Origin: Somniosus microcephalus
Lineage: Eukaryota
Direction of reading: 5' to 3'
NCBI GenBank assembly: GCA_052327205.1
Contig: CM126213.1
Coordinates: 201,810,001 to 201,874,000 of the forward strand
DNA length: 64,000 nt
A program made the position numbers and the translations under genes. How positions within the stretch are numbered: the first letter of the stretch is position 1; every line of letters starts with the position of its first letter. Below the pieces are notes generated by a model. It saw only the letters and a program-made list of their open reading frames with translations. It did no database searches and was not told where the DNA came from. This document shows positions 27,916 to 57,272 of this stretch, piece by piece.

Positions 27916-28270
27916 TCTAGTATCTAGCAAGATAGTTAGCAAGAATGGGAATATTGACTAATTTTTCTCTACCTAACCCAGAAGCACTGAAGCCAATTGC
28001 AGTGACCATAACACCACTTCAGCTGTCATCAGCTAATTCAGCACAGACCAGGGGTCAAACCCTGAACTTTCCTGGTATGTATGATCCAGCTATTAACTGC
28101 TTTAACTTGGTGAATTATCAGGGGAGCCATATGGAGCTCTGTCCTGTTTATTGTTGTCTATTAGTTCATAAATACGGTTAAAACATTACATCATTGTCCT
28201 TCATTAAGTTGCCAAAACGCTAAATAAATTAACAATACAGCTTCAAAAATGAACAGTAATTTCTTTTTAC

Positions 28271-28314
28271 CTCTGTGCTTTCTGGAATGGTCCCATTGCT
28301 AGACGGCACTGGTG
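28271..28314 (-). CDS. CEACAM-like receptor, cytoplasmic exon 3
   Basis: ttttgtctttacag|...|gtaaaa, 44 bp, phase 1-0. Translates (T)PVPSSNGTIPESTE. A downstream terminal exon was not identified. Confidence 0.6.
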
Positions 28315-30546: not shown

Positions 30547-30603
30547 TTTGATTGTAGGGCGGTTTTCTTTCAACTGTTGCATACTCTGTTTGTGATGAAG
30601 GGG
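30547..30603 (-). CDS. CEACAM-like receptor, cytoplasmic exon 2 with ITSM (TEYATV)
   Basis: tctttcaacacag|...|gtaagt, 57 bp, phase 1-1. Translates (T)PSSQTEYATVERKPPYNQ, containing TxYxxV. Confidence 0.75.
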
Positions 30604-30848
30604 CTGTGTTGAAAGATATAATACAGCTTTGAGCTAAACATGTGCCGTTGTCAAATATTTGCAAGCTGGCATCAACCTTTGTTGTCTACTGATAGTGGTA
30701 TGCGAGTAGTTTATTTGCAAAGCATGATATTGTTAATGCATTAGTTTCTGTTATTCAGGCGCAGAAATAAGGGTTAAAAAAATTAATAAGAATTGCTGAA
30801 ATTTGCACTGGCATAGCGGCATGGATAATGCGGAACTATTTTACTTAC

Positions 30849-30901
30849 TGTTTCCTGGTGAAGCCATTTTGATATCATTTTGTTGTGATCCACCTTTCGC
30901 C
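30849..30901 (-). CDS. CEACAM-like receptor, cytoplasmic exon 1 (53 bp)
   Basis: cattttag-type acceptor (attcatttag|) and |gtaagt donor; phase 2-1, matching the TM exon and the next exon. Translates (R)AKGGSQQNDIKMASPGN. Confidence 0.7.
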
Positions 30902-31447
30902 CTAAATGAATATTACATAATAGATGGGCTTGTAGGTTTCTCAGCAGAATTTACATTCACTAAATATATGATTCACAGCCAAGGTATATGTTATATTTAT
31001 TAATAGCCTCACAATATTAATGAGAACTGTTAGATTTTACTGATGGGCACCAAAAGTTCATGAATACAGAAGCAGATGTTTCTAATATATGTGTTGATAT
31101 GTATAAACAGAGTCCAGCAAAAATATTATTGGAGCGAAGTACTTCAAATGACGGTGACAGGTAACGGAGGACTGTATAATCATTATCTACAACTCAGTGC
31201 TAGTACTGCAGATGTTTCTGGTTATCAACGAATGACGAACATGCTCACCACCACTTCAGGGTGTTATAATGTAGAGTCAAGGTCAAGCAACTACTGTTAA
31301 AGAGCCAATGTAAAGTAATATACATCTTCCATTTCTTACCATCTCATCATTTCTTGAACCCAATAGAGTTGTTCAGAAAAATGGCAATGGTATTTGTTAA
31401 ATATCCAATTCAACACTGGCTGCATGCAAGATTCTGTTTATTTAAAT

Positions 31448-32121
31448 GGGCTGTTTATTCCGAGCATATTCTACGTGCTGTGTACACACCCGTAGGGACA
31501 TCGGAAATGCCGGTTTCTGTCAAGATCGGACGCCTGCCCTGGAGAATGGCCAGCGGACAGAGAGTTCCGCTTTGTGGAGAACCTTCGCCCACAGAAAACC
31601 CCGAAAATTCTTACGCTTGGTAAAAGCAGCATAAGAGTTGAAAAAAGTCAACAAAAATTTTTTTTTCCCCCACTCATTTATCATTTAAAAATACTTTTTA
31701 AAAAGGTAAGTTTATTTATAGTCCCGTAAAAAACTTTATTTTTTTCAAAAAATTAAATTTTGTTTAAAATATTTAATTTATTGTAATTTCAACTCATTAA
31801 AAAAATTTGATTAAAAAAAATATTTAATGTTTTACAGTACTATGTTTTTGGGGTGATCTCCATTCATATATTTGACAGGTCTATCTGTCCAGTGTATGAA
31901 GGGAGATTCCCTTCTCCTATTGGCTCCCCATGGCCCACGTGATCCCCGGGATGCTTGCGAACCACATGCGCCTCTCGGATACGTCGGCCCTGCGTATTTC
32001 GAGTTTGGAGAGGCCCAGGAGCGGAAGTATATGCGCCTTGGGAGCCCTCAGGTAAGTCCGTAGATTTTTCCTGATCGGAGGCCTCCGCATGCAGGAAGCC
32101 TCCGATCGGAAAATATGGGCC
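31448..32121. mobile_element. Non-autonomous Harbinger-like DNA transposon
   Basis: gggc...ggcc ends, AAT 3-bp TSD; its right end is homologous (inverted) to 58571-58850. Confidence 0.65.
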
Positions 32122-32667
32122 AATATCTAAATCTGTAAAAACCTAGGGCAATATTTATTACACCCATTTTATTCCAATCACTTGTGTACAATTTAGAATA
32201 GAATTAATATATTTTATTTGAAATAAATCAATATAAAATGTTCCCACAGAATGAAGGATATGCATTACATATTCGTAAGTGGGTAACAAAAAAATGAAAA
32301 TAACAAGAACAAGTGTCTGACAAATAATGATAACCCTAATTCAGAGAAATAGAAAGGCAGTGGAATATGGAACCAAATGGAAAGGAAGTATCGGATTTCT
32401 AGCACTTTACCAGTTTTCCTGTTTGTGCTATTTCCAAATGCCTCACTTTACATAATATTTGTGCCAGCTTTAAGGCTGTACAATAGAAAAGTGATTCAGT
32501 ATTGTATTTACCTGCAGAAGTAAGTAAATAAGGTATAAAAGCTGAGGAACTGATTTAATTTTAAAATACTAAATTAAATTTTAGTTGATATCCCCAAGTT
32601 ACTTTAGTGACCATATTTTTTTTAAAGTAATAACTCAAATGCCACATGGGTAATTTCCTGAGTGTTT

Positions 32668-35600
32668 CTCTCTTCCCCCCCAGTCGCTCTCTCTTCCCCC
32701 CCACTCGCTCTCTCTCTTTCCCCCCACTCGCTCTCTCTCTTTCCCCCCACTCGCTCTCTCTCTTTCCCCCCACTCGCTCTCTCTCTTCCCCCCCACTCGC
32801 TCTCTCTCTTCCCCCCCAGTCGCTCTCTCTTCCCCCCCACTCGCTCTCTCTCTTCCCCCCCACTCGCTCTCTCTCTTCCCCCCCACTCGCTCGCTCTCTT
32901 CCCCCCCACTCGCGCTCTCTCTTCCCCCCCCACTCGCTCTCTCTCTTCCCCCCACTCGCTCTCTCTCTTCCCCCCCCACTCGCTCTCTCTCTTCCCCCCA
33001 CTCGCTCTCTCTCTCCCCCCCCACTCGCTCTCTCTCTCCCCCCCACTCGCTCTCTCTCTCCCCCCCACTCGCTCTCTCTCTTCCCCCCCACTCGCTCTCT
33101 CTCNNNNNNNNNNNNNNNNNNNNNNNNNNNNNNNNNNNNNNNNNNNNNNNNNNNNNNNNNNNNNNNNNNNNNNNNNNNNNNNNNNNNNNNNNNNNNNNNN
33201 NNNNNNNNNNNNNNNNNNNNNNNNNNNNNNNNNNNNNNNNNTCTTCCCCCCCCGCTCTCTCTCTCTTTCCCCCCCCCCGCTCTCTCTCTCTTTCCCCCCC
33301 CCGCTCTCTCTCTCTTCCCCCCCCCCGCTCTCTCTTCCCCCCCCCCGCTCTCTCTCTCTTCCCCCCCCCGCTCTCTCTCTCTTCCCCCCCCGCTCTCTCT
33401 CTCTTCCCCCCCCCGCTCTCTCTCTCTTCCCCCCCCGCTCTCTCTCTCTTCCCCCCCCGCTCTCTCTCTCTTCCCCCCCCGCTCTCTCTCTCTTCCCCCC
33501 CCGCTCTCTCTCTCTTCCCCCCCACTCGCTCTCTCTCTTTCCCCCCCCACTCGCTCGCTCTCTTCCCCCCCACTCGCGCTCTCTCTTCCCCCCCCACTCG
33601 CGCTCTCTCTTCCCCCCCCCACTCGCTCTCTCTTCCCCCCCACTCGCTCTCTCTCTTCCCCCCCACTCGCTCTCTCTCTTCCCCCCCACTCGCTCTCTCT
33701 CTTCCCCCCCACTCGCTCTCTCTCTTCCCCCCACTCGCTCTCTCTCTTCCCCCCCCACTCGCTCTCTCTCTTCCCCCCACTCGCTCTCTCTCTCCCCCCC
33801 ACTCGCTCTCTCTCTCCCCCCCACTCGCTCTCTCTCTCCCCCCCACTCGCTCTCTCTCTCCCCCCCACTCGCTCTCTCTCTTCCCCCCCACTCGCTCTCT
33901 CTCTTCCCCCCCACTCGCTCTCTCTCTCTTCCCCCCCCCGCTCTCTCTCTCTCTCTCTTCCCCCCCCGCTCTCTCTCTCTCTCTTCCCCCCCCGCTCTCT
34001 CTCTCTCTCTCTCTTCCCCCGCCGCTCTCTCTCTCTCTTCCCCCCCCGCTCTCTCTCTCTTTCCCCCCCCCGCTCTCTCTCTCTTCCCCCCCCCGCTCTC
34101 TCTTCCCCCCCCCGCTCTCTCTTCCCCCCCCCGCTCTCTCTCTCTTCCCCCCCCCGCTCTCTCTCTCTTCCCCCCCCGCTCTCTCTCTCTCTTCCCCCCC
34201 CCGCTCTCTCTCTCTTCCCCCCCCGCTCTCTCTCTCTTCCCCCCCCGCTCTCTCTCTCTTCCCCCCCCGCTCTCTCTCTCTTCCCCCCCCGCTCTCTCTC
34301 TCTTCCCCCCCCGCTCTCTCTCTCTTCCCCCCCCGCTCTCTCTCTCTTCCCCCCCCCGCTCTCTCTCTCTTCCCCCCCCCGCTCTCTCTCTCTTCCCCCC
34401 CCCGCTCTCTCTCTCTTCCCCCCCCCGCTCTCTCTCTCTTCCCCCCCCCGCTCTCTCTCTCTTCCCCCCCCGCTCTCTCTCTCTTTCCCCCCCCGCTCTC
34501 TCTCTCTTTCCCCCCCCGCTCTCTCTCTCTTTCCCCCCCCGCTCTCTCTCTCTTCCCCCCCCCCGCTCTCTCTCTCTTCCCCCCCCGCTCTCTCTCTCTT
34601 CCCCCCCCCCGCTCTCTCTCTCTTCCCCCCCCCGCTCTCTCTCTCTTCCCCCCCCGCTCTCTCTCTCTTCCCCCCCCGCTCTCTCTCNNNNNNNNNNNNN
34701 NNNNNNNNNNNNNNNNNNNNNNNNNNNNNNNNNNNNNNNNNNNNNNNNNNNNNNNNNNNNNNNNNNNNNNNNNNNNNNNNNNNNNNNNNNNNNNNNNNNN
34801 NNNNNNNNNNNNNNNNNNNNNNNNNNNNNNNNNNNNNNNNNNNNNNNNNNNNNNNNNNNNNNNNNNNNNNNNNNNNNNNNNNNNNNNNNNNNNNNNNNNN
34901 NNNNNNNNNNNNNNNNNNNCCCCCCCGCTCTCTCTCTCTCTCCCCCCCCGCTCTCTCTCTCGCCCCCCCCCCGCTCTCTCTCTCTCTCTCTCTTCCCCCG
35001 CCGCTCTCTCTCTNNNNNNNNNNNNNNNNNNNNNNNNNNNNNNNNNNNNNNNNNNNNNNNNNNNNNNNNNNNNNNNNNNNNNNNNNNNNNNNNNNNNNNN
35101 NNNNNNNNNNNNNNNNNNNNNNNNNNNNNNNNNNNNNNNNNNNNNNNNNNNNNNNNNNNNNNNNNNNNNNNNNNNNNNNNNNNNNNNNNNNNNNNNNNNN
35201 NNNNNNNNNNNNNNNNNNNNNNNNNNNNNNNNNNNNNNNNNNNNNNNNNNNNNNNNNNNNNNNNNNNCCCCCCCGCTCTCTCTCTCTCTCCCCCCCCGCT
35301 CTCTCTCTCGCCCCCCCCCCGCTCTCTCTCTCTCTCTCTCTTCCCCCGCCGCTCTCTCTCTNNNNNNNNNNNNNNNNNNNNNNNNNNNNNNNNNNNNNNN
35401 NNNNNNNNNNNNNNNNNNNNNNNNNNNNNNNNNNNNNNNNNNNNNNNNNNNNNNNNNNNNNNNNNNNNNNNNNNNNNNNNNNNNNNNNNNNNNTCTTCCC
35501 CCCCCGCTCTCTCTCTCTTTCCCCCCCCCGCTCTCTCTCTCTTCCCCCCCCCCGCTCTCTCTTCCCCCCCCCGCTCTCTCTCTCTTCCCCCCCCCGCTCT

Positions 35601-36941
35601 CTCTCTCTTCCCCCCCCCGCTCTCTCTCTCTTCCCCCCCCCGCTCTCTCTCTCTCTTCCCCCCCCCGCTCTCTCTCTCTTCCCCCCCCGCTCTCTCTCTC
35701 TTCCCCCCCCGCTCTCTCTCTCTTCCCCCCCCGCTCTCTCTCTCTTCCCCCCCCGCTCTCTCTCTCTTCCCCCCCCGCTCTCTCTCTCTTCCCCCCCCGC
35801 TCTCTCTCTCTTCCCCCCCCCGCTCTCTCTCTCTTCCCCCCCCCGCTCTCTCTCTCTTCCCCCCCCCGCTCTCTCTCTCTTCCCCCCCCCGCTCTCTCTC
35901 TCTTCCCCCCCCCGCTCTCTCTCTCTTCCCCCCCCGCTCTCTCTCTCTTTCCCCCCCCGCTCTCTCTCTCTTTCCCCCCCCGCTCTCTCTCTCTTTCCCC
36001 CCCGCTCTCTCTCTCTTCCCCCCCCCGCTCTCTCTCTCTTCCCCCCCCGCTCTCTCTCTCTTCCCCCCCCCCGCTCTCTCTCTCTTCCCCCCCCCGCTCT
36101 CTCTCTCTTCCCCCCCCGCTCTCTCTCTCTTCCCCCCCCGCTCTCTCTNNNNNNNNNNNNNNNNNNNNNNNNNNNNNNNNNNNNNNNNNNNNNNNNNNNN
36201 NNNNNNNNNNNNNNNNNNNNNNNNNNNNNNNNNNNNNNNNNNNNNNNNNNNNNNNNNNNNNNNNNNNNNNNNNNNNNNNNNNNNNNNNNNNNNNNNNNNN
36301 NNNNNNNNNNNNNNNNNNNNNNNNNNNNNNNNNNNNNNNNNNNNNNNNNNNNNNNNNNNNNNNNNNNNNNNNNNNNNNNNNNNNNNNNNNNNNNNNNNNN
36401 NNNCCCCCCGCTCTCTCTCTCCCCCCCCGCTCTCTCTCTCTCTCTCCCCCCCCCGCTCTCTCTCTCTCTCCCCCCCCGCTCTCTCTCTCNNNNNNNNNNN
36501 NNNNNNNNNNNNNNNNNNNNNNNNNNNNNNNNNNNNNNNNNNNNNNNNNNNNNNNNNNNNNNNNNNNNNNNNNNNNNNNNNNNNNNNNNNNNNNNNNNNN
36601 NNNNNNNNNNNNNNNNNNNNNNNNNNNNNNNNNNNNNNNNNNNNNNNNNNNNNNNNNNNNNNNTTCCCCCCCCGCTCTCTCTCTCTCTCTCTCCCCCCCC
36701 GCTCTCTCTCTCTCCCCCCCCGCTCTCTCTCTCTCTCTCCCCCCCCGCTCTCTCTNNNNNNNNNNNNNNNNNNNNNNNNNNNNNNNNNNNNNNNNNNNNN
36801 NNNNNNNNNNNNNNNNNNNNNNNNNNNNNNNNNNNNNNNNNNNNNNNNNNNNNNNNNNNNNNNNNNNNNNNNNNNNNNNNNNNNNNNNNNNNNNNNNNNN
36901 NNNNNNNNNNNNNNNNNNNNNNNNNNNNNNNTCTCTCTCTT
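32668..36941. repeat. Polypyrimidine/polypurine minisatellite (~20-23 bp units), with seven N gaps
   Basis: Units tt(c)6-9actcg(ct)n and tt(c)7-10g(ct)n; gaps indicate that the true length is unresolved. Confidence 0.95.
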
Positions 36942-36966
36942 CCAACAACAACATGCCCTCGAAAAA

Positions 36967-36996
36967 GCCTCGGCACTGCCGGGCACCCCCTGCTAG
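36967..36996 (+). mobile_element. Helitron-like 3' terminus (hairpin + CTAG)
   Basis: gcctcggcactgccgggc hairpin, 8 nt spacer, then CTAG followed by T; CR1 sequence starts immediately after. Confidence 0.55.
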
Positions 36997-38100
36997 TACT
37001 TTTATATATTGTACGTCTTGCCATAAAACCCAGTGTTCCATTGGCTTTTTTATGGCCTTATCCATTGGAGGCACTGCTTTTAATGTCTTGTGAACGTTAA
37101 CACCCAAATCCTTCTGCTCATCCACATCACCCAGCCTTCCCCCATTCAAAGTATAAAATTTTACTTATTTTGTACAAAAATGTACTGCCTCACATTTACT
37201 GACATTGAATTCCATCTGCCATTTTTTTCCCCATCCCACCATCTTATAACTATCGTCTTGCAGATTTATTTGGTCCTCAATGATTTACTATGGTTGGTAT
37301 TTTAGTATTGTATAAAAATTGGACACTGCTTTATAGTGCTATAGCGAAATCATTTAACAGTGAACAAAAGCGATCCCAGAACACCACTTGTGTCACCATT
37401 ACCCACTTCCAATCACTTTCAGAAATTGCCCTTCACTCCTACTCTCTTTCTCCCTTCTAACCTGTTTTAATCCAATTTGCTATCCTCTCCCCTAATTTCA
37501 TATCCCTTAATCTGTAATAGTCTGCTGTGTGGTGCCTTGTCAGAGGCTTTCTGAAAGTCCACGTATACCACACCCACTGCATTTCCTCTGCACTCTTTTC
37601 ACTTTTACTTTTTTCAATCAGCAAATTTAGAGATTGTGTTCCTTATACTACAGTCTATATATACCGAGAACAAAAGTGGACCCAGCACTGACCCCAAGGG
37701 TGTGCAACCTATCTCCAGTTCAAGCAACATATATTTATTTATCTTTGTTTCATGCTGCTAAATTCCCTTTTATACCATAAGCCTTAAATTTTTCAGAAGT
37801 CTCTTATTGAAAAGCTTCTGAAAACTCAAACACTACATCTACTGTATTCTTTTTAGGTCTACATCTACTGCATTCTTTTTAGGTCTCCAATCAGTCAAAA
37901 TCTATTCATGTTTATTAATTTCATCTTGAATTATAGATTCTTAGAGTTTGCCCACAGCTGATGATCAACTAACTGGTCTATAGTTATTCTTCTCCCTTTT
38001 CTTGAACAAGGGTGCAAGTGACTATATTCCAGTCCTGTGGTACAATTTGCAAATTCAAAAGTTGCGATTGGAGCCTCCATATCCTCTCTGACTATTTTCA
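36997..38100 (-). mobile_element. Old CR1 RT remnants
   Basis: EQKDLGVNVH, ANGTLGFMAR and DFQKASDK-like fragments on the minus strand. Confidence 0.65.
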
Positions 38101-39239
38101 TCTGTAATTGATTCAGGCAGAGAATTCCACAACCTAGATATTTACATTAATGTAAACATATGCAAATGACAGAATTATATCATCTGATGTATTTTCTGAC
38201 ATTGGTGCTGTAGCAACAATAGATACAGGGGATATGCGATCGTCCCTAGTGTCCAACATATGCCATAGTCGTGCAGGAGGGATTTTAATTTTTAATTTTC
38301 CTAAAGCCAGCGTGGAAGAAGCAAACACCATCAATAAGATCATGGCTGATCTTAGACCTCAACTCCACTTTCCCGCCCAATCCCCATAACACTTGATTCC
38401 CCCAAGAGTCAAAACATCTATCGATCTCAGCCTTGAATATACTCAGACTCAGCATCCACAGCCCTCTGGGGCAGAGAATTCCAAAGATTCACCACCCTCT
38501 GAGTGAAGAAATTCCTCCTCATCTCAGTCTTAAATGGCTGACCCCATATCCTGAGACTATGCTCCCTAATTCTGGACTCTCCAGCCAGGAGGAAAACAAC
38601 CTCTCAGCATCTACCCTTTCAATCCCCCTCAGAATTTTATATGTTTCAATGAGATCACCTCTCATTCTTCTAAACTCCAGAGATTATAGGGCCAATCTAC
38701 TCAATCGCTCCTCATAGGACAGCCCTCTCATCCAGAGATCAATCAAGTGAACCTTCATTGCGCTGCCTGTAAGGCATGTATGTCCTTTCTCAGATAAGGA
38801 GACCAAAACTGTGCACAGTACTCCAGGTGTGGTCTCACTTAAGGAGTAAGACTTCCTTACTCTTATACTCCAACCCCCTTGCAATAAAGGCCAACATGCC
38901 ATTTGCCTTCCTAATTGCTTGCTGTAGGTACACGCTAACTTTATGTGTTTCCTGTACGAGGACATGTAAATCTCTCTGAACACCAACGTTTAATGGTTTC
39001 TCACCATTTGAAAAATATTCTGTTTTTCTATTCTTCCTACCAATGTGAATAACTTCACATTTCCTTTCATTATCCTCCATCTGCCACCTTATTGCCCTTT
39101 TACTTAACCTGCCTAAATCCCTTTGCAGGCTCTTGGTGGCCTCCTCACAGCTTACTTTCCCACCTAGTTTTGTATCATCAGCAAACTTGGATACATTGCA
39201 CTCGGTCCCTTCATCTAAGTCATTAATATATATTGTAAA

Positions 39240-40134
39240 TTGCTGAGGGGGAGCCCGGCGTTGCCAGGGCTGTTTTGGGGCGGGCGGTTTAAATCGAGTG
39301 CCAGGCTTTGGGGCCCTGTCTGTGTCCCTTTGTGAATCTGGTGCTGGGCAACATTTTAAATCGAGTCCCAGGCTTTAGGGCCCTGTCTGTGTCCCTTTGT
39401 GAATCTGCTGCCGGGCAACATTTCTACCTTTTAATACCTTGAAAGATGAAAGTGAAAGTACTTATAAAACATTTTTGGTAAATCTTATGTTATTTTTAAA
39501 AGAGAAACTAACTTTTTGAAAGCTGGATAAGGAGAGTAGTTTGAGCTGCAACCAGTGAAAGAATGGCTGGCAGATCCCTGAGATGAAAACGATTAGTCCC
39601 GCCCACACACACACTTAATACCTTGAAAGATGAAAGTGAAAGTACTTATAAAACGTTTTTGGTAAATCTTATATTATTTTTAAAAGAGATACTAACTTTC
39701 AAAGTAGTTTTAGCTGGAAGCTGAAGTCATGGCACTGAAACAATGGCTGCCACATCCCCGAGATGAAAACGATTAGTCCCGCCCACACACACACACACAC
39801 ACCAATTGGCCAACCATCAGGGGACCGTACTGTAGGATTGGTCAATCGTGACGGCACAGGATTGGTCGAACCTTGACGTGAGTCAATCAATGCTAGCAGA
39901 TAATGAGTTTAATTTTGAAGGTTTTTCGCATAAGGCGCGAACAATTTTCGTCCGACCGAAAAGTAAATACGCTTACCAGCGTCCCGGAAGCGTAAGCTTT
40001 CTTCAGAGGTAACGCGCGCGTAGGTACGCGGTATAACTTTCGAGCGCATAGCCGGACAGACGCACACCCGAGGACAGACAGACAGAAGGACAGACAGACA
40101 GATCGGCCGCTTTATATATATATAGATAGATAGA
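39240..40134 (-). mobile_element. Non-autonomous Helitron-like element with microsatellites and internal tandem repeats
   Basis: Minus strand starts TC(TA)n, has (CTGT)n, and ends with hairpin agccctggcaacgccgggct. It sits at an A^T site of the CR1, with ~70-bp and ~185-bp internal direct repeats. Confidence 0.6.
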
Positions 40135-40413
40135 TAGCTGAGGCCCAAGCACTGATCCTTGCGGCACCCTACTATTTACAGCCTGCCAACTGGAAAATGA
40201 CCCGTTTAACACTACTCTCTGTTTTCTGTCCGTTAACCAATCCTCTATCTGTGCTAATATACTACCCCTGACCCCTTATCTTGTGTAGCAACCTTTTATG
40301 TGGCACCTTATCGAATGCCTTTTGGAAATCGAAATATACTACGTCTACTGGTTCCCCTTTATCTACCCTGCTAGTTACATCCTCAAAAAACTAATAAATT
40401 TGTTAAACACTAT

Positions 40414-41110
40414 GGGCTAGATTTTCAGTTGCTTGCGCCAGCAGTTAGCGCCTTAAGAGAAGTGATTTTCGGGTGCTATTCGTGTAGCGCCCGGGCGCAG
40501 CGCAGTTTGCACCCCGCCCCAAATTAAGTTGCCCGTTAGCGCCGGCGCAAAGTTTAGCGGCCGCCCGGATGCGCGCGCAGAAAATGACGTCACATCCTCG
40601 TGCAACGCCCTTTGGCCGCCCCGAATCCAAACTTCAGTCGGACCGCCCCATTCTGCGGCTGGCGTCCAGAGCGTTTGTAAAATGGAACGCAACACACCCT
40701 GGGGAGCGCAAATTAAAGGGCACTCCTCCTGCACTATAAACGGCAGTCTGCATGTGTTGTGTGGAAGGATCCAGTGTGTTGTTGTGAACGGTGTATTTAT
40801 GTTTCCGGCCACCACCACCACCTCCTCCTCCTCCTCCTCCTCCTCAAAAAACACATGCACCCTTCCCCTTTAAGAGCTCACTGGCACCAGAGTGTCTGCC
40901 GTGCACTGCGCCCGAGCTCGGGCGCTGCGCTCTGCACCGCCGGCTTAGCGCCTAAAGATAGTAGTGGAACGCCCCTTTTAGCGCTCCACCAACCTCTTAG
41001 GGCGAAGCCACTGAATTTCCGGCAACGGGGCGCTACTTTGGGGCGGGCGCTAACTTCGGGCGGGCGCTAAGGTTAGCGCGCCAAAACTGTCTATACTGAA
41101 AATCTAGCCC
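40414..41110. mobile_element. GC-rich Harbinger-type MITE
   Basis: Perfect TIR gggctagattttcagt / actgaaaatctagccc; interrupts the CR1. Confidence 0.8.
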
Positions 41111-41955
41111 TCATTCCCTTTCATAAAATCATGCTGACTCTGCCTAATCATATTATGATTTTCAAAGTGCCCTGTTACCACTTCCTTAATAATGGATTCT
41201 AGCATTTTCCCTACTACTGATGTCAAGCTAACTGGCCTACAGTTCCCTGTTTTCTCTCTCCCTCCTTTCTTTGTGTTCCCTTGCTCTAATTTCAAATTTA
41301 ATTTAAGGTAGTGTTGCAGATTTACCTTTTCCATTACCTTAATTATTTTGTATACCTCTATAAGATCACACCTTGCTGATGTCTCCTTTCAAGTCCAAAA
41401 AAACATTTCTCCACCCTTTCCTCATATCAAAGATACCAGGGAACACCTTCCAATGCTTGAACTATTTCTGGTTTCTTGGTGACCAGAACTTTATTTGTTC
41501 TTAATCTGTGTGATGCTGGCAAGGCTGCACTTATTGCCCATCCCTAGTTGCCTGCAAAGGCAATGGGCCTTCTCCTTGAACTGCTGCAGTCCTTGCACTG
41601 ATGTTACCCCACAATGACGTTCGGTAGGGAACTACAGGATAGCGACTCAGTGACAGTGATATGACCAAGTCAGGATATTGTATCATTTGGAGGTGATGGA
41701 ATTCGCACATTATTTCTGTTCTTGTGCTCCTGTACAGTGGTCTGGTCAGTCTGCACATTGAGTACTGGAGAGAGTGGGATAAATCTGCAAAAGGGCTGAT
41801 AAAAATTACCTTTATGGCTACAAAAATGTGGATAAAATCTTTTGAGCCTTTTTCAAGGCTTGAAATGGCACATCAGTTTTCAGCCTTTGAAAAGGCTGTA
41901 TGACGAGTTGGGGGTGAGAACTAATGTGCAAGATTGACATGACAGAAAACATAAT

Positions 41956-42839
41956 GGCCCGGATTTTGCATTAGGAATAATGGTGAAGCCATCAGCGCTC
42001 ACCGTTATTATGGAGTAAATCGGACAGCAACTTCCAGCGTTAGCACGTGTGGTAAAACACAGAAATCAGGCAGTTGCTGTCCGATTTACCCTGCTCCTCC
42101 ACAAGCTTCGCTACGCTGGTACCTCACCGATCATTTCAGCATTAAAACACATGAAGGTCATGAAGTTGCGGTACTTACCCACTAGATACCCACTAACCAC
42201 GCCAGAAAAAGTTAGAGTTTGTCCATTTTCCCACAGTACAACAGTGACTACACTCCAAAAGTACTTAATTGGCTGTAAAGTGCTTTGAGACGTCCGGTGG
42301 TCATGAAAGGTGCTATATAAATGTAAGTCTTTCTTTCTTTCAAGTGTAAGTGAATTTTTAACGGCATGATAAATCTTAATTACTACCAAACATCTCTGGC
42401 ACTAAAAATTTACTTTTACAAGTGTGGAGTCTCATTCTTTCAGATTTTAATTATTGTTGGAGATTTAAAACAACATTTTAAATTAAAAAAAAAAACTTTT
42501 TCTTTCTATCTCTTTTATCTGTCTCTCTTAATTTCATCTTTATTTCCATCTCTTTATTTTGCTTTCTGTACATGATTTTACATTGAATTACTTATTTTAA
42601 CTGATACTTCCTGGTTGAGACTCTGCGTGCCTCAGTGAGGCTTCTTCAATCTGATTGGTTGAAGAGACACGCTGTTACTTGTCCTGCTCACACAAGTCCC
42701 AGATCCCCTGTAGAAGGCACTGCATTGAAATGGATTTCTAATTACTGTAAGTTGCAAGCCCACTAAATGTCTGTGGGTAGCTGTAAGCGTAATGAACGGA
42801 GAGTGCCGTTTGTTCGCCGCTGATTGCAAAATCCGGGCC
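41956..42839. mobile_element. Harbinger-type MITE containing a SINE tail (~42224-42340)
   Basis: Perfect 15-bp TIR ggcccggattttgca / tgcaaaatccgggcc and AAT TSD. Confidence 0.82.
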
Positions 42840-43323
42840 AATATGGAAGTATAAAACAGAGACTGTGGTAAAATAGCAGAGTGGATTGTGGTTTACTAGG
42901 AGTTTGCCCTGTTTAGCACTCCAGGGTACTCTCCACTGAGAATTGCAGTACACACTTTCTACAGTATAGCAGGTCCTGGAAACAGATGTGGGAGAAGGCA
43001 GATGCTTACGGAATTTTACACAGCAAGGAGAACCAACAGTACAATCTACCAGGTACTTGGCACATATCAGAAATATCAACCTCTTCCACTCTTATTCCTT
43101 CCTCCTGCAAAACACTTGCTTCTCATAGATACCTATACTTTATCTTTTGCTGGTCAGTCTTCTGATTGTGAATGGCTCTAGGCTTGATGCGAGTTTCCCC
43201 TTGCTAGGCCAAGCTTTGTTCTCAAACCTAACTTGCTGACTGCCTGTCTATGTGTCACTTTGTCCAAATCTCACCACCCCCCCATATTCCCAGCAAGTCC
43301 TTTTGACTTTTTACCCACTCGGC

Positions 43324-45080
43324 AGCTGCGATTTCACCTATCAAGGCGGGTCCGTTGCGGCCAGGGTTGGTGGCGGGTTGTGACACCGGTGCTGGCTCCA
43401 GCCCGCTCTGTGAAATGAATTTTACGATGATTGGGTTTGTTAAGCCTGCCCAGCGCATTTCTTGGCCAATTGAAGGAAGCGGATCTGATGACGTCACTTG
43501 ATGACGCGTCATCAACCAGGTTCCTCAAAGGGACCATGCGTAAATTGATTTTGACAGTTCTGCTGTCAGTGTTTTACAGCATTGAGGTGCTGCAAACACT
43601 AACAAGCACTGCACAGAGGTGCACGGCTGCACCCAGGCCCTCCCATGACTCAAATGCTCTCCCATAAGCATATGGAGGGAGTCACAGCATGCTAGGGAGG
43701 TCTCTTTCCATCCCATGGGTGGAAGAGACCTCCCTAGGAGATCAACACAGCCTGGTTGCACATTGCACAGGCGGACACGAGCAGGGATGTGGTCAGGAGG
43801 ACCAGGCTGCAGTGGCGCAAACCTTTCAATGATCTCAGTAGATCACGAAACATTACTGCAAAGCTACACTCAACCTCACCCTGCTGTGCCACCCATCACA
43901 TCCCCATCACTCTGCCTTCCCTACCCTAGTCCTGCACATCCTTACTCACACCAACTTACCTTGCACTTCCACCCATCCCTCTCTATCTACATTATCACTT
44001 CTCCATCTCACTAGCCACCCCTCACACTCACCCTCATCCTAGTCCAATCATACCAACTAACAACACCCAAGGGGAGGCACTTGGGTGTTTTAGCCATTGT
44101 TCATGTGAAGTTTCTGTTAATGTGCTGTCAAAGATTTAAATCTTTATTTTCAACACTTGTCTTCTTGTACAAATTTGTGTGCACCTTTGGAAGTGGCTTG
44201 GTGAGTTGTAGTGAATGGTGAGACATAACGTTCCCCACCGCCCCCACAATGGTGAGGAGCATAAAAGGAATGGCTTGGACATTGTAGGGATGCTTTATGG
44301 TGCTGGTGTGGAGTGGTGCCAACTTGGTGCATCATGTGGCAGCCAGGGTGTACAGTGTTAAGTGAAGCTAATCTGGACATGGTGAGTCCATCACTGGTGT
44401 CCCGAGCAACAATGTGCATGGGTGATGATGCCCCGTGTCCAGTGCAGCATCAGTTGAATGAGAAGGTTGGTGTTGATGCTCTGGTGCACCCGGTGATGCT
44501 GGTGTTGGGGCTGATCGTTTTGGGACTCTGAGGACCAAGGTGAGATGTTCTCAAGGGCACCGATGCTGATGGAATAGATGGCAGATGAGGTTGAGATAAC
44601 AGAAGTAATGTCAATGTTGAGATAGGTTGATCCAAGGAGGTGACAGTGGATAGAGAGATTACTCCAAACACTTCAAAAGTGCATAAAGCTCAAAAGTGGG
44701 TTCTAAACACTGAAGGGTGAAGCTTCCGAGATTGGAAACTGACCAGCTGTAAAATGGCAGGTTTTAAACCACTTTTGCAGCTGTCACCTACTGAAAGAAA
44801 TGAAGAGTTGTTCAGAACCCGACATACTTATCTGGCGTGATCCCCAAGCAACGGGAACCTTGTGGAAAACTTGGCAAAATGCTTTGAACTGGAAAAATGG
44901 GGATTTAATTACTTTAAACACCCTCCTAACAAGCACAATTGAATAACCTGCCGCTTCATGCCGTGTCTGCAAAGTGCAGATATAAAAGGCACTTGGGAAA
45001 CTGAGAAGGAGGCGGGATCTTTTTGATCGACAGCAGACCCGCCTCCAAACCCACCCTCTGAACACCGGCAAAATCAGCCC
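43324..45080 (-). mobile_element. Non-autonomous Harbinger (same family as 11109, opposite orientation) with Myb/SANT remnant
   Basis: Plus strand reads AAPRPSHDS ... AWLHIAQADTSRDVVRRTRLQWRKPFNDL, a Harbinger Myb/SANT-like helix-3 motif; ends aaaatcagccc. Confidence 0.75.
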
Positions 45081-45359
45081 AGTGATTCACCAGCAGGTCC
45101 GTCAGTAAAGCCAGCTACCTCCTTCCCCTTTTGGTTGTGGGTTTAAAGAAACCATCTCCTGCTACTCAAAATAAATAGGGACCATTTTGGCTTAATGGGC
45201 CTGCGATGAAACAATCAACACTCATTGTCTCAGTTTGAAATAGATTATAATCTGTAACATTCCACAAACCAGATCACCTGGCAGCTTTAATGCATATTTT
45301 CAATGCCTGGTCCATTAACAAATGAACCTTTTCTCTAAATGGCTTCACAGAATTACATA

Positions 45360-47664
45360 GGGCTTGATTTGAATAGCCCCGAGGCGGCAGGTTTGGAGGC
45401 GGGTTGGCAGCGAAAATCGGAAAAAATGGTTTGAGACTGCCAACCCGTCTCCATCCCGCCCCCACGTGATTTTTGTCAGTGTCGGGTTAGCCGCTCCTAT
45501 ACTGACCCGACGGGAACTGGTGGGACAGGTAGTTAAGGCAGTTGAGAGCCTGTTAACTGCCTTGCTAATCCTATTTTTAGAGTGGTTTCCCAATTTTCGT
45601 GCTTCTGGCTCCTGTTTCCCGTCTTGTCAGAAACAGGCCAGCTGCAAGGAGAGGAGTTTCTCGAGGATATGATTTGTAGTCATTGGTGCAGCACTTTAAA
45701 AGCACTCCTGTAACATGGCTGACATTCAAATTCAACAACTTTGTTGTTGGAGGTTTAGGATAAGATTTTGCAAATCTGCTGACCTTGTGACTGTTCAAGC
45801 TGACACCCATCTGCAGTGTTACCTGATTGGAATAATTTTTGGTCACTTTTGAGTGTGCGCTTGCAAACTTCTTGCTTCAACTGAAATCTATAGCAATGGG
45901 ATGGGAACCATTTACATCCTCCGAACCTGATGACCAGGATGAGAGGAAGAACAGCCGCGGCATCAACACAACCAGCCACAACAGCAGCACCAACATGCCA
46001 ACCTCCTCCTCACCCACCTGATGCTGCACTGGACACAGGGGGCTGGATTTTACCAGCCCCGAGGAGGCGGGTTTGGAGGCAGGTCTGCTGGGAAAATGGG
46101 AAGCGGGTCCCAGCCCATCTGCTGGCAGCGGGAAGGGGATTAGAGCCAATTAACAGGTAGTTAAGAGGCAGTTAAGAGGCTTTGCCCCATTTGCCGCCTG
46201 CTGATGTGGCCTTCCTGATGGCGGGAAACCCCGCCAGGGTCAGCGAGGCGATCTGTTTGTCCTGCTGCAGTGTAAGTGTGCAAATGACAGCTGCAGAGGT
46301 AGTGTGATGGGCATGATGGTGCACAGGCAAGTATGACAGGTGAGAGAATGTAGTGAGAAATATTTTTATTCTGTTTAAATGTATCTGCAGGTGACAAGAT
46401 TTGATGTTTCTGTGAAGCCTCACCTGATTGGGAGAATTGACAGATGGCTTTTGCAATCTCACATGCAGCTGCCATCTGTTTTCTCCGAAGGAGAGAGTCG
46501 TTGGTGAGCCTGGGTGCAAGGGCTCACCTTTGGACAGTGATTGTCAGTGTTTCACAGCACCTCAATGCTGTCAAACACAATTCATCTTAAAATTTATGGG
46601 GCCTGTCCCTTTAACAAAACAGTTAGATGAAGCGTCATGCACTGACATCATCTGACACCGACTTTCCCTTAATAGGGTGGGCTTAACAAGGCCAATCAGG
46701 GGAAAATAGTGTTTGTTCGTCAGACGTCGCTGGAGGCGGGACTAGAACCCGGAAACCAGCAGTCCCGCTCCCAATGTGCCTCCTCAGGTAAGATCGCGGC
46801 CAGCGCATCAGCCCCTGATAAAATTGCTTGCCGGGAGGCCAGCGATGGCATCACCGTGGCCAGATTTTCTTCGCTTGATGCTGTAAACCCTGGCTGCCAC
46901 ATGATGCACCAGGTTGACACCGTGAAGCATCCCTTTAATGTCCAAGCCATTCTATACATACACATCACTATAGCGGGGGGGAGGGGGGATGGAGCTATGA
47001 CTGAACAATCACTGGAACTAAGTAAGACACTTCTCAATGTGTGCTCAGATCTATCCAATAAGGGGCATTTTTGGAAAAAGATATTACACTGTATGACAAC
47101 ACATTACCAGGAACTTCACATGGACATTGGCTAAACCTCTCAATTGCCTACCCTTGTGTGTTGTTAGTTGGTATGCTTGCAGTAGGATGAGGATGAGTGC
47201 GAGGGGTGGCTAGTGAGATGGAGAAGTGATAAAGTAGATAGAGAGAGTTGGGTGGAGGTTCAAGGTAAGTTGGTGTCCTGGGGAGGTCTCTTCTGCACTG
47301 GAAGGGAAGAGAACCTCCCTGCGTGCTGTGACTCCCTCCATAAGCCTATGGAGGGAGTCATTGGAGAGCCTGGGTGCACGTATTCACATTTGTGCAGTGA
47401 TCGTCAGTGTTTGCAGCACCTCAATGCTGTCAAACACTGACAGATCAACTGTCAAAATAAAATTGTGCATGGTCCCTTTAAGGAAACCGGAAGATGACGC
47501 CTCAGCAAATGACGTCATCAGACCCGCTTCCTGTTAATTGGCCGGGCAGGGCGGGCTTAACAAGGCCAATCAAGGGTAAATCACATCTGCAGTGCGGAGG
47601 CAGCTGGGGGCGGGACCAGACCCCAGAAACCAGCTGACCCGCCACCATAATTAAATTTGCAGCC
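45360..47664 (+). mobile_element. Non-autonomous Harbinger with a related copy nested inside
   Basis: gggcttgattt...aaatttgcagcc with flanks ata/gta; internal sequence collinear with 11109-13121 apart from the insert. Confidence 0.7.
46040..46801 (+). mobile_element. Nested Harbinger-type element
   Basis: gggctggatttt...aagatcgcggcc; repeats the host's own 5' end (agccccgagg.ggc.ggtttggaggc); host sequence ggacacag|..gcatc resumes afterwards. Confidence 0.68.
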
Positions 47665-47860
47665 GTAGAATTTACAGCACAAAAAAACAGGCCATTTGGC
47701 CCAACAGGTTTATACCGGTGTTTGTACTCCACACGAGCCACTTCCCACCGTACTTCATTTCACCCTATCAACATATCCTTCTATTCCTTTCTCCCTCATG
47801 TACTTATCTAGCTTTCCCTTAAATACATATATGCTGTTCACCTCAACCACTCCCTGTGGT
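47665..47860 (-). mobile_element. CR1 3' tail fragment
   Basis: tagaatttacagcac...aggccatttggcccaac, typical CR1 tail on the minus strand. Confidence 0.7.
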
Positions 47861-49199
47861 AGGTTTCAGCTTTTGGTTAAACCTGTACTAAATCATTGTT
47901 TAAAATACAAACAGGGAAAGATAATTAATTCCTAGATCCTTTCTGTGATAGTCAAATATGGAAAAATGTCTATCACAAACACTGCAGTATAAAAGGTATT
48001 ATAAACATCACACCAATTCCTCCAAAGGCCATATTAGAACTCTTTCAGCCACTGAGGAGGTTCCTTTGTTTCCATTTTAAATAGGCTCACCAAAAAGCAA
48101 ACCAACACAAATACTGCTGATCTATATATACTGTGTGTGTATTTAAATAGCTTTCTTTTAAATCTGGGGCTTTAATAAGGGTTGTTTAGGAAATGGGCAT
48201 GTTTAACAATAAAATATGAGTATGAAATTTCAGGACAAAAAGACACTGGTGCTTCCTCTGCATTAGGAGTGGTGTTTTAACATGCAAGGTTTTTGTTGTG
48301 TATGACACATACACAATTAATAGATTGGAAGCCTTGTTGCTAGATATAGGCCATTGGACTAATTAGCTTTATTTTTAGTGTTATGCATCCCTAGTACTGC
48401 CAGTCAGGTAAGGCAATTATTTATTTTGCAATGATCTACATGTGTGCAGTCAATGGTATCTCAGATCTTGCGAAATGCTTGTAATGGTGCAACATTGTCT
48501 CCATCTCTGCAATTGTTGATGAGCTCCTTTGATGAAATAGTCCAGTGGCTAAAAAGGCAGGACAGCTGTGGACAGAGGCAGAGCGCTTCTGGTAACAGAG
48601 GAGATCGTTAAAAGACCTCTGCTAGTATTTAACACAGTTCAGTATTTGTCTCCCTTGAACCTCTTGCATCAGTCCAATATAAAAGACACTCTGGCCTCGA
48701 AGAACATTCTCTTTGGGATATTGTCATTGCTAGAGAGTTCTATGACAACAGAAATTTGTAATTTCAGTCTCCAGCACACAGGTTAGCATTATTGTTTTGA
48801 CTGTTGCTCACAGGCAGGTAAATGGAATTGAGATACAGATCAGCCACAATCTCATTGAATGGTGGAACAGGCTCCTTCTGTTTATATGTTCCTATTTACA
48901 TCTCGAAGTCCTTGTTTCTTTAGATTTGGGAAAGAGGTACAGTAAAACTCCCAGCTACATTTTTATTATGTGATCGCTACGTATATTTTTACTGGGTTTT
49001 GAGCATCCTAATTCCTGACCAGTTCTAACAGTGAGCAAACATAATAAGAAACCATTTGGCATAAACTAGTGGCCATTTATGGCATGGTAGATGAGAAATA
49101 TATTTCCAATTCAGAGGACTTATCCGCAAGTCTAAAATGATCAATGGTGCGAATTGAGCACCACAATCAAGCATGAGTGCTCTATTAAGAAAGGGTGCA

Positions 49200-49772
49200 A
49201 TGTCATGTATAGAGACTTGACCAGACCCCATCTGGAGAACTGTGATCAGTTTTGGCACCACACCTCAGGAAGGATATATTGGCCTTGGAAGGGGTGCAGC
49301 GCAGATTCGTCAGAATGATACCAGGGCTTAGAGGGTTAAATTACGAGGACAGGTTGCATAAACTTAATCTTCTATACTCAAGAGAATACAAGCTAAGGGG
49401 GTGGTTTGATTGAGGTGTTTAAAATATTGGAAGGATTCGATAGGTTAGATACAGAAAAACTATTTCCTATCATGGAGGTATCAAGAATGAGGGGACATCA
49501 TCTTAAAATTAGAGCTATGCCATTTAGGAGGGAAATCAGGAAGCACTATTTTTACACATAGGAGTAGAAATCTGGAATTGTCTCTCCCAAAAGGCTGTGG
49601 ATGCTGGGAAAAGTGGATATTTCAGGACTGAGATTAATAGATTTTTGTTGAGTAAGGGTATCAAGGAATATGGAGGGTAAATGGAGTTAAGGTATAGATC
49701 AGCCATTATCTAATTGAATGGTGGCACAAGCTCAAGGGGCTGAATGGCCTCCTGTGTTCCTATGTTCTTATG
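49200..49772 (+). mobile_element. CR1 3' fragment
   Basis: RPHLENC, RKDILALEGVQRRF and tail ctatgttcttatg. Confidence 0.8.
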
Positions 49773-50031
49773 GGGTTAAAGTCATCAGAAAGAAATATTT
49801 CTATTTTTATGGTGCTGTAATTTTTTCTCTAACAACTTCTATTAAGATAAAGAAATATATATTTTGCCTCATATTAGTGATGGCCACAGCCTGCACATGT
49901 AGCTACTAGGGATTTGGCATATTGAGTGCTAGGGTAAAATAACGATTGAATTAAACAAAAATTAAAAGTAATCATAAGTGGGAAACCAAACATAAACTTG
50001 TAGCTTCAAAGTACAGGTGTGAAATCATATA

Positions 50032-50655
50032 GGCCGCGATTTTGCTGACCTCAGCAGATTCGTGGTGGGCAAAGTCGGTGGCAGGTCCCGACCCCGCTGC
50101 TGGCTCCAACCCACTGTCTGAAATGAATTTACCTTGATTGGGCTTGTTAATCCCGCCCAGCGCGTTTCTCAGCCAATTAGAGGAAGCGGATCAGGTGACG
50201 TCATTTGATAATGCGTCAGCCGGTTTTCTTAAAGGGACCATGGTCAAATTTATTTTGACATTTGTGCTGTTGGTGTTCTACAGCATTGAGTTGCTACAAA
50301 CACTGACAATCACTGCACAAAGGCACAGGGCTGCACCCAGGCTCTCCCATGACTCCCTGCTTATGCTTTTGGAGGGAGTCACAGCACGCAGGGAGGTCCT
50401 CTTCCCTTCCCATGGGCAGAAGAGGCCTCCCCAGGAAATCAACACAGCCTGGTTGCACATAGCAATGATCTCTAAACAAGGTCATAATTTCCTGAATTGG
50501 GTCACCTGCCGCTGTGTGTCGTGTCTGCTTAGTGCTGATAGACCCAACATCGGGGAAAGGCACGTGGCAGCGGGGTCCCGACCCGCTGGGGGGGGAAAAA
50601 AACACCCAACCCACCACCAATCGTGCCCGCTGACCCCCCCCGGAAAATCTCATCC
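50032..50655 (-). mobile_element. Short non-autonomous Harbinger retaining Myb/SANT N-terminal coding sequence
   Basis: ggccgcgatttt...aaaatctcatcc with flanks ata/aca; ORF 50138-50719 contains RAAPRLSHDSLLMLLEGVTARREVLFP...AWLHIA. Confidence 0.75.
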
Positions 50656-51117
50656 ACAAATTCTACTGAACAAGAATCATTTAAACTCTCTCTTGCGAGA
50701 CTTATTCAGATCAAAGTAGAAACATGTTTTTAATGGAACTATAATCATAGAAAGCATAATAACCCTAATACAACCTTAGTGCCAGCACAAATTGACCTGA
50801 ACATAGCTCAGAAGGTTCAATTGGGCACAAATTCCACCACTGAATTTGGTTTGGAAATAAAGGCAGGGAGATGGGGGAAGTGATTCTGTGGGGAGCAATT
50901 GATAATGAATAAATGCAGACAGTAGGTTAAGTGGTGTTTAAAACACGAACCATAAATTAAGAATTGAACAAATAACTGGAAACATACTCTACAAATTCTG
51001 ACATTTGGAAAGCGAAACAGAAATGAATTGTATAATGAATCTATTTAATTTCAGGTTGCCATGTCTATAGGGAAAAATAATAAAGATGTCTGTAAAATTT
51101 GAATGTAATGTATTCAC

Positions 51118-51244
51118 CTGTATGTTTTCTTCTTGATCACCCATACAATTATCCCAATGATGATCGCAAGAATAGCAAGAACTGCAATCACTATGCCTGC
51201 TATGGCACCACCAGATAATTTGTTTTTATCAGGTTTAGGTTGTT
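51118..51244 (-). CDS. CEACAM-like receptor, transmembrane exon
   Basis: Strong acceptor ttttttttccag|, donor |gtgaat, 127 bp, phase 1-2. Translates (E)QPKPDKNKLSGGAIAGIVIAVLAILAIIIGIIVWVIKKKTY. LSxGAIAGIVI matches the CEACAM1 TM start; basic stop-transfer KKK follows. Confidence 0.9.
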
Positions 51245-56644: not shown

Positions 56645-56902
56645 CTTGTACAGTTACCTGTACAGTAGCATTACTTCCTTTTTTGGTTATGATGTTTTTA
56701 ACCTGACAAGTATAGTTCCCACCATGATTTGAGCTTACTGAGTCAATGCTGTAAGTTTGTTCTGTCTTTAACAGATTGGTTCCATTGTACCATTCATAGG
56801 CACCAGCTGGGACTGATAGAGCAGAACAATGAAATGTAAGAGCTTTCCCCAGTTCTGCCAAAACTGACCCTGAAGGTTCAATAATGACGTTCTCTGGTCC
56901 AT
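56645..56902 (-). CDS. CEACAM-like receptor, IgC2 (B-type) domain exon
   Basis: tttttgtag|...|gtaagt, 258 bp, phase 1-1, after a 94-bp intron. Translates (Y)GPENVIIEPSGSVLAELGKALTFHCSALSVPAGAYEWYNGTNLLKTEQTYSIDSVSSNHGGNYTCQVKNIITKKGSNATVQVTVQ (inside ORF 56637-57086). The YGP junction is typical of CEACAM A-B pairs. Confidence 0.9.
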
Positions 56903-56996: not shown

Positions 56997-57272
56997 AATT
57001 AATTTGCAGGATGGTGTCTCCAGAATCGCTGCTAAAATCATTGCTTGCATTACATTTATATGTTCCTGAATCATTTCTGTTAACACTGATTATAGTCAGT
57101 GTAACATTGTCCGGAGAAGTTATTATTCTGTCATTATCCTGGGCAGCTCGGTCATTCTTAAACCAAATCCGTGACTGTACAAAGCCCGAGGCGTGACAAG
57201 TCAGTAAAATAGTATCGATGTTTTCTACTGGTTTTGAATTGTTGGCCGATACAGTGACATTAGAAACCGGTT
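56997..57272 (-). CDS. CEACAM-like receptor, IgC2 (A-type) domain exon
   Basis: Minus-strand exon tttacag|...|gtaagt, 276 bp, phase 1-1. Translates (E)PVSNVTVSANNSKPVENIDTILLTCHASGFVQSRIWFKNDRAAQDNDRIITSPDNVTLTIISVNRNDSGTYKCNASNDFSSDSGDTILQIN. Has Ig Cys/Trp/DxGxYxC and the CEACAM A-domain-like NNSKPVE and N.TLT...V.RND motifs. Confidence 0.9.

Follow-up and report, generated by a model that had tools for sequence, protein, structure and literature searches.

A 53-nt exon follows the transmembrane exon of a CEACAM-like gene in Somniosus microcephalus. The feature is real, and it is a variant of the known CEACAM1 system, whose isoforms from cartilaginous fish are already in RefSeq without comment. 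The best explanation is that the locus represents the one gene of inhibitory (CEACAM1-like) type in a shark CEACAM cluster, that the 53-nt exon shares its ancestry with exon 7 of CEACAM1, and that a conserved long/short switch is also used in this species. A probability of roughly 65% is given to this reading. In humans, the ratio of long to short CEACAM1 controls inhibitory signalling in immunity, liver metabolism and cancer, and few vertebrate genes evolve as fast as the CEACAMs. Descriptions of the switch have so far come from mammals and, through a 2026 preprint, from a snake. Should sharks and rays share its exon logic, the switch would be older than the split between cartilaginous and bony vertebrates.

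The window, that is, the whole stretch of 64,000 nucleotides that was analysed (G000:C12:201810001-201874000), belongs to a genome of 6.4 Gb. The features of the gene are collected in Table 1, where TM denotes the transmembrane exon and c1 to c4 the cytoplasmic exons. A check of the sequence found the exon coordinates, the length of 53 bp and the phase 2-1 given in an earlier note on this DNA all correct. Within the 64-kb window, the search for the last exon gave repeat-derived candidates only, and c4 was found outside it.

Table 1. Features of the CEACAM-like gene (window positions, except for c4)
Feature	Position	Strand	Remarks
A-type IgC2 exon	56997..57272	-	276 nt; Pfam Ig_3/I-set; ag/gt ends
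B-type IgC2 exon	56645..56902	-	258 nt; Pfam Ig_2/Ig_3; ag/gt ends
TM exon	51118..51244	-	127 nt; GxxxG motif; ends ...TAC AG|gt, phase 2
TM-c1 intron	30902..51117	-	20.2 kb; contigs join TM directly to c1
c1	30849..30901	-	53 nt, phase 2-1, ag/gt; spliced on both sides in contigs
c2	30547..30603	-	57 nt, phase 1-1 (symmetric); encodes the ITSM TEYATV
c3	28271..28314	-	44 nt, phase 1-0; penultimate exon
c4	starts G000:C12:201785357, running downward	-	last exon, ~53 kb below c3, beyond the 64-kb window

The membership of the gene in the CEACAM family, as the earlier note had it, is supported. The A domains of CEA, CEACAM1 and CEACAM6 were among the best solved-structure matches of the A exon, with titin second by summed score, and the B exon shares 75% identity with the corresponding domain of the shark model P0036. 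All 26 database matches of the A exon are chondrichthyan and 25 of them are named CEACAM or PSG; in this protein search Pristiophorus was the closest by IgA identity (89-91%). Besides an N exon without cysteine and seven more IgC exons, the upstream flank contains a start codon with its leader near 201,911,839. By translation and tblastn, the window and the fetched flanks hold nine IgC exons in all, and the gene spans about 126 kb. From the exon order and the similarity to P0036, we infer that one transcript would hold all of the upstream exons. The architecture is that of the CEACAM family, in which an IgV-like N domain at the N-terminus precedes A- and B-type IgC2 exons, and the paralogues are clustered: 26 of the 27 genome matches to the A exon lie at 201.87-202.98 Mb of C12, 12 of them being paralogous copies with 80-87% identity. 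The c1-c2 DNA and the c4 peptide have one genome match each, and the gene appears to be the only one in the genome with the c1-c4 type of tail. LIPE (PF06350), which like BCL3 is a syntenic marker of the CEACAM family, does lie on this contig, but at 175.0 Mb, 27 Mb distant and not flanking.

On the minus strand the exons form the phase series TM|2, c1 2-1, c2 1-1 and c3 1-0; c2 and c3, like c1, are bounded by ag/gt. The long tail is composed of 95 residues with three tyrosine motifs, TEYATV, VVYAQP and TDYAEL. TEYATV satisfies the consensus TxYxxV/I given in the examined part of PMC2832619. The last exon of CEACAM1 carries one ITIM plus one ITSM, or two ITIMs. Neither motif of c4 fits the strict ITIM/ITSM consensus: VVYAQP has no aliphatic residue at +3 and TDYAEL has L, not V/I. 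As in CEACAM1, a transmembrane protein carries an ITIM/ITSM motif in its spliced tail, and the first cytoplasmic exon has 53 nt, the loss of which shifts the frame; its length and position match those of the mammalian counterpart, as had been claimed. The tail is built from four exons, not from the three of CEACAM1. The frame shift by itself is unremarkable, as a length of 2 mod 3 is expected in a third of exons. The weight rests on a joint match: the gene family, the place directly behind the TM exon, the two phases and the exact length all agree.

The possible joins were translated. Joining TM to c2, with c1 alone skipped, gives a tail of 16 residues with its stop inside the ITSM exon c2, exactly as the earlier note had described. 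Joining TM to c3 skips c1 and c2, together 110 nt, which is 2 mod 3 as 53 is; in the shifted frame c3 reaches a stop (TAG) after five codons and the tail has 10 residues, ending in STSAV. The skipping of c2 alone keeps the frame, removes one ITSM and leaves a tail of 76 residues. Read-through from the TM exon hits a stop immediately, and retention of the intron would therefore likewise yield a tailless protein. The donors of c1 and c2 are consensus GTAAGT, and the acceptor of c1 has the lowest pyrimidine count among those scored (10/17 against 11-16 for the others). A motif scan found no TAGG, TGCATG or ACTAAC in or near c1-c2. S-x-V/I at the C-terminus is a PDZ-binding motif. Such an end of the short tail is predicted here and in 3 of the 8 other species with short models, but it was given little weight, because a serine codon of the long frame dictates the hydrophobic residue at the end.

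Four runs (X13, X14, X17 and X18), two of them raw-read RNA runs, were aligned to positions 28100-31100 of the window. The kind of run is not on record for X13 and X14, which are from the same sample, but their joints are spliced. Because TM and c1 lie 20.2 kb apart, the TM junctions were readable only as loose contig ends, which were compared by eye. Contig record 8 of X14 (980 nt, depth 33.6) contains c1, c2 and c3 consecutively, and the loose ends of the contig read as the last part of the TM exon and the first part of c4. X13 has the same joints at a depth of 55, and the c2-c3 joint (28314-30547) is present in all four runs. The contigs of both X14 and X13 show that the 53-nt exon is genuinely spliced, and the long mRNA TM-c1-c2-c3-c4 is made. 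No contig joining TM to c2 or c3 occurs in X13 or X14, whose contigs run unbroken through TM-c1, although rare forms drop from contigs.

Raw reads were sampled from 24% and 31% of the X17 and X18 runs, which is too sparse for a splice ratio. For X17, 7 of the 13 aligned reads cross from c2 to c3, all with one start, and the other 6 are intronic. For X18, 14 of the 17 aligned reads are intronic and three touch tail exons. By depth-bin arithmetic, one of these three is a c2-c3 read, one lies over c1 and retains the c1-c2 intron, and one is ambiguous: 49 of its letters fall in the c2 bin, and 52 fit nowhere in the stretch. The ambiguous read could be a join of TM to c2 or of c2 to an exon downstream. 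At a coverage of a handful of reads from at most three samples, neither a read nor a contig of the short form was identified in Somniosus microcephalus. The c2-c3 intron (window:28315-30546) has sense-strand RNA coverage in all four runs, which most of the c1-c2 intron lacks; slow splicing, retention and an alternative 3' end are possible readings of this coverage. Read-through from c2 is open for about 88 codons, and the bin 30423-30523 is without coverage. An alternative last exon near 29017 was considered and set aside, as the RNA-derived sequences of the four runs contain no supporting joint.

The same type of tail was found in 17 other species: Heptranchias, Heterodontus, Pristiophorus, Carcharodon, Cetorhinus, Mustelus, two Scyliorhinus, two Chiloscyllium, Hemiscyllium, two Mobula, Hemitrygon, Leucoraja, Narcine and Callorhinchus. 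The set comes from protein searches and cluster look-ups, in which the RefSeq/UniRef entries are automatic gene models; isoform models of the RefSeq type usually rest on aligned RNA-seq. A five-member Hemitrygon cluster was left out of the isoform survey. A search with the tail region gave no additional species. The profile search reached rays and one chimaera and no named bony vertebrate; 10 of its 22 matches were looked up by name, and about half of the 22 were unrelated TM hits. Judged from the protein alignment, the c1 segment comprises 17 full codons in each of the 16 elasmobranch species and 18, or about 56 nt, in Callorhinchus. The conserved length on which the earlier note had made its proposal depend was thus found throughout the elasmobranchs and was exceeded by one codon in the chimaera. 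Exon c2 is present in the models of 9 of the 17 species, including rays and the chimaera, and is therefore taken as ancestral. It is absent from the models of 8 galeomorph species, which have a three-segment tail. In Callorhinchus, P0099 has the same four-segment inhibitory tail. A second Callorhinchus protein, P0070, has c1- and c3-like segments joined to an ITAM-like end.

Short models exist in 8 of the 17 species, each ending five residues past the junction; none was present among the examined proteins of the other nine. The long/short pairs of all eight join TM to c3, the short tails mapping to the first base of c3, and in the six sharks checked the two members of a pair are identical up to the TM junction. 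To determine the skip, all junction positions and skip lengths compatible with both proteins were searched without constraint. It gave 53 nt in the five species without c2 (with a second solution of 116 in Cetorhinus) and 110 nt (c1 and c2) in the three species with c2, a sawshark and two devil rays. A phase-2 junction is compatible with all 13 pairs tested (8 chondrichthyan, 2 lizard and 3 marsupial), and about 1% of the possible tails of five residues plus stop would match by chance anywhere within one long tail. Both Mobula species have a further model that lacks c2 alone. Examples of such isoform sets, named 'CEACAM5-like', are XP_041032665/666, XP_078092389/390 and XP_072122193-196. The long/short switch proposed in the earlier note is accordingly represented by short-tail models in eight other species, while no skipping was observed in Somniosus microcephalus itself.

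The two frame-shifting joins differ in the geometry of their stops. The stop of the TM-c3 join lies 28 nt upstream of the c3/c4 junction, and that of the TM-c2 join lies 67 nt upstream of the same junction, which is the last one. According to the examined part of PMC12668785, a stop escapes nonsense-mediated decay (NMD) when it lies less than 50-55 nt from the last junction, and the distances presuppose an intronless 3' UTR and a rule valid in sharks. Therefore, the TM-c3 product should escape NMD and the TM-c2 product should be degraded. Exons c3 and c4, which were absent from the earlier note, both alter the interpretation. The note had taken the junction 51118>30603 as that of the short isoform and the ITSM exon as the counterpart of mammalian exon 8. 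The counterpart is c3, the informative junction is 51118>28314, and all three c2-bearing species with a short model skip c1 and c2 together and have their stop in c3. On the sequence evidence, the product of skipping c1 alone is probably the wrong short isoform, and the note's own caveat about NMD probably applies to it.

Could c1 nevertheless be skipped alone, with a functional short tail of 16 residues, ending in the ITSM exon, as the product? The join of TM to c2 is feasible and shifts the frame as described, and the ambiguous X18 read would suit it, but this read is equally explained by c2 joined to a downstream exon. A model of this join exists in none of the 9 other c2-bearing species, compared with three that have the TM-c3 join; an NMD target would tend to be unlisted as protein, and the form would be under-reported in protein databases. 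Together with the position of its stop, 67 nt ahead of the last junction, these points make a functional TM-c2 form improbable. The opposite reading is that c1 and c2 are constitutive in Somniosus microcephalus and the short form is absent. It agrees with their inclusion in all contigs and nearly all informative reads, with the GTAAGT donors on both exons and with the nine species that have no short model among the proteins examined. However, it rests on a handful of reads from no more than three samples and on contigs that lose rare variants. Pristiophorus, with its IgA identity of 89-91%, has a short model, and the shifted-frame TAG of c3 is intact here; constitutive splicing is regarded as very improbable. 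The preferred reading remains a long/short switch in which TM is joined either to c1 or to c3.

The comparison with bony vertebrates bears on the origin of this switch. In the examined parts of the sources, rat CEACAM1 exon 7 is 53 bp (PMC11646291), dog CEACAM1-S lacks the 53-bp first cytoplasmic exon and has its stop in the second (PMC2110893), human short tails have 12-14 residues (PMC2490704), and the long and short variants of a rattlesnake differ by a 53-bp exon (PMC13278318, a 2026 preprint). Two cross-species lizard pairs gave a skip of 53 nt with the stop 4-5 codons past the junction. Three marsupial pairs, two of them within one species, gave 50 nt, allowed a phase-2 junction and also had the stop 4-5 codons on. 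The spacing between the two tyrosine motifs of the last exon is 24 residues here and 24-29 in six amniote tails, and their tyrosines align in register in the profiles. The HHalign comparison of shark and amniote tail profiles is weak (probability 7.5%, E 0.005, score 18.8); the maximum of 40 column shuffles was 14.5, and shark ITAM-type tails also scored 14.5. No alignment between the shark and amniote profiles was obtained for c1 and c3. The teleost, gar, bowfin and frog proteins gave no mappable long/short pair, and their tails look different. In Rana temporaria, the tail of P0140 has three tyrosine motifs, the first of which, VTYATVQKK, resembles the motif of shark c2; the ITSM cassette may have survived in amphibians.

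The published systems can be set beside that of the shark. Mammalian CEACAM1-L/-S is like it in the CEACAM ectodomain, the TM exon, the 53-nt first cytoplasmic exon, the frame shift, the stop in the penultimate exon, the short tail of about 10-14 residues and the two tyrosine motifs of the last exon (PMC2110893, PMC2490704, PMC11646291 and PMC2832619, in the parts examined). In contrast, the shark gene has four cytoplasmic exons, not three, with an extra ITSM cassette, c2, to be skipped along with c1; it has no TEHKxS, its last-exon motifs are VVYAQP and TDYAEL, and it has nine IgC exons over about 126 kb. Reptile CEACAM1 shares the many IgC exons and, in the rattlesnake, the first cytoplasmic exon of 53 bp that is in or out, whereas a c2-type exon is absent from the lizard and other amniote tails examined; the examined part of the preprint on reptiles and birds (PMC13278318) does not describe splicing in cartilaginous fish. 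The 'CEACAM5-like' sets of sharks and rays are direct orthologues by tail sequence, with long, c2-skipped and short models predicted, but they are named after CEACAM5 or PSG and have not been read as a CEACAM1-type switch. Shared intron phasing and ITIM/ITSM motifs of fish CEACAMs are given as unpublished results in a part of PMC2832619, and a part of PMC4079198 traces the family to cartilaginous fish through one skate EST. No published account of chondrichthyan CEACAM long/short splicing was found in a literature scope that left out most subscription journals and supplements.

The exon layout is, with good confidence, homologous to that of CEACAM1. In favour of homology are the same family, the same exon order and phases, a length within one codon, the stop in the penultimate exon and the aligned tyrosines of the last exon. 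The exact length of the first exon varies, being 50 nt in marsupials and about 56 in Callorhinchus, and the changes (50, 53, 56) are whole codons. Convergence, or a structural by-product, would mean that the 2-1-0 series of phases goes back to inheritance or to coincidence and that elasmobranchs and amniotes each acquired the skipping on their own, or show it as splicing noise. Whenever an exon of 2-mod-3 length stands behind a TM exon, its skipping gives a short tail. The similarity between shark and amniote tails is weak and in c1 there is none, the bony fish and frog proteins gave no mappable pair, and the pyrimidine-poor acceptor of c1 (10/17) after a 20 kb intron favours chance skipping. 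Exon skipping of independent origin has also been reported for other genes (PMC12198306). On the other hand, the shifted-frame stop is at the same place in 8 of 8 elasmobranch short models and 4-5 codons past the junction in lizards and marsupials. The differences in length are whole codons, and the skip of the c2-bearing species lands on c3, which is the choice that escapes decay. We consider convergence rather unlikely; common ancestry is the likelier, though unproven, explanation, and the switch most likely dates to the jawed-vertebrate ancestor.

A mechanism can be proposed on this basis. Exon c1 would be the inherited counterpart of CEACAM1 exon 7 (Cyt1), and c3 that of exon 8 (Cyt2). The TM donor would be common to both forms and, as in other sharks and rays, could join straight to c3, skipping c1 and c2. 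Read in the shifted frame, c3 would then give the 10-residue tail, with a stop near enough to the last junction to escape NMD. Skipping of c2 alone would drop one ITSM, and the product of skipping c1 alone would probably be degraded. By analogy with mammalian CEACAM1, the long form may be tyrosine-phosphorylated, recruit phosphatases of the SHP-1/2 type and damp signalling. The short form may have the same ectodomain and support adhesion without the motifs, diluting or modulating the long form, and the splice ratio could set the inhibitory strength tissue by tissue. If this is true, a short form was worth keeping despite its unconserved sequence, which would place its function in the removal of the tail and not in the short peptide. 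The coupled skip of c1 and c2 would be a simple and testable case of decay shaping the survival of isoforms. A further scenario is tentative, and we rate it at somewhat less than even. The switch may have been retained for about 450 million years from an ancestral dial with three positions, namely three motifs, two (c2 skipped) and none (c1 and c2 skipped), with NMD removing the fourth combination. Amniotes and most galeomorphs might each have lost the ITSM cassette and so arrived at the same two-state 53-nt switch.

Several side observations were made at the locus. The N exon (G000:C12:201911603-201911285, minus strand) is 95% identical to that of a neighbour near 201948312-201948630 on the plus strand, in the opposite orientation; the flanks of the pair share 93% identity in the 100 nt upstream and 44% downstream. 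The pair resembles the gene-conversion signature of the paired receptors of Xenopus. The group 1 paired Ceacam receptors of Xenopus (PMC5112662) are also like the shark locus in having one inhibitory gene beside relatives in opposite orientation with near-identical N exons; unlike for the shark models, no long/short splicing appears in the examined parts of that source, and the examined parts of PMC8274849 likewise contain nothing on it. Shark paralogues in the database have ITAM-like tails with YEN motifs. Near-identical, consecutive B exons lie at 201,885,093 (L015) and 201,880,723 (L014) of G000:C12 with no A exon between them, which suggests a recent tandem exon duplication. The TM-c1 intron contains a G/A-rich satellite of about 4.3 kb (window:32680-36950) with units of about 20 nt, inside which all seven N stretches are located. 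The c3-c4 intron carries at window:3900-8600, on the plus strand, stop-interrupted frames that we take to be gag, reverse transcriptase, RNase H and integrase of an LTR-retrotransposon-like element. Many fragments elsewhere in the window are presumably of LINE (CR1-like) origin.
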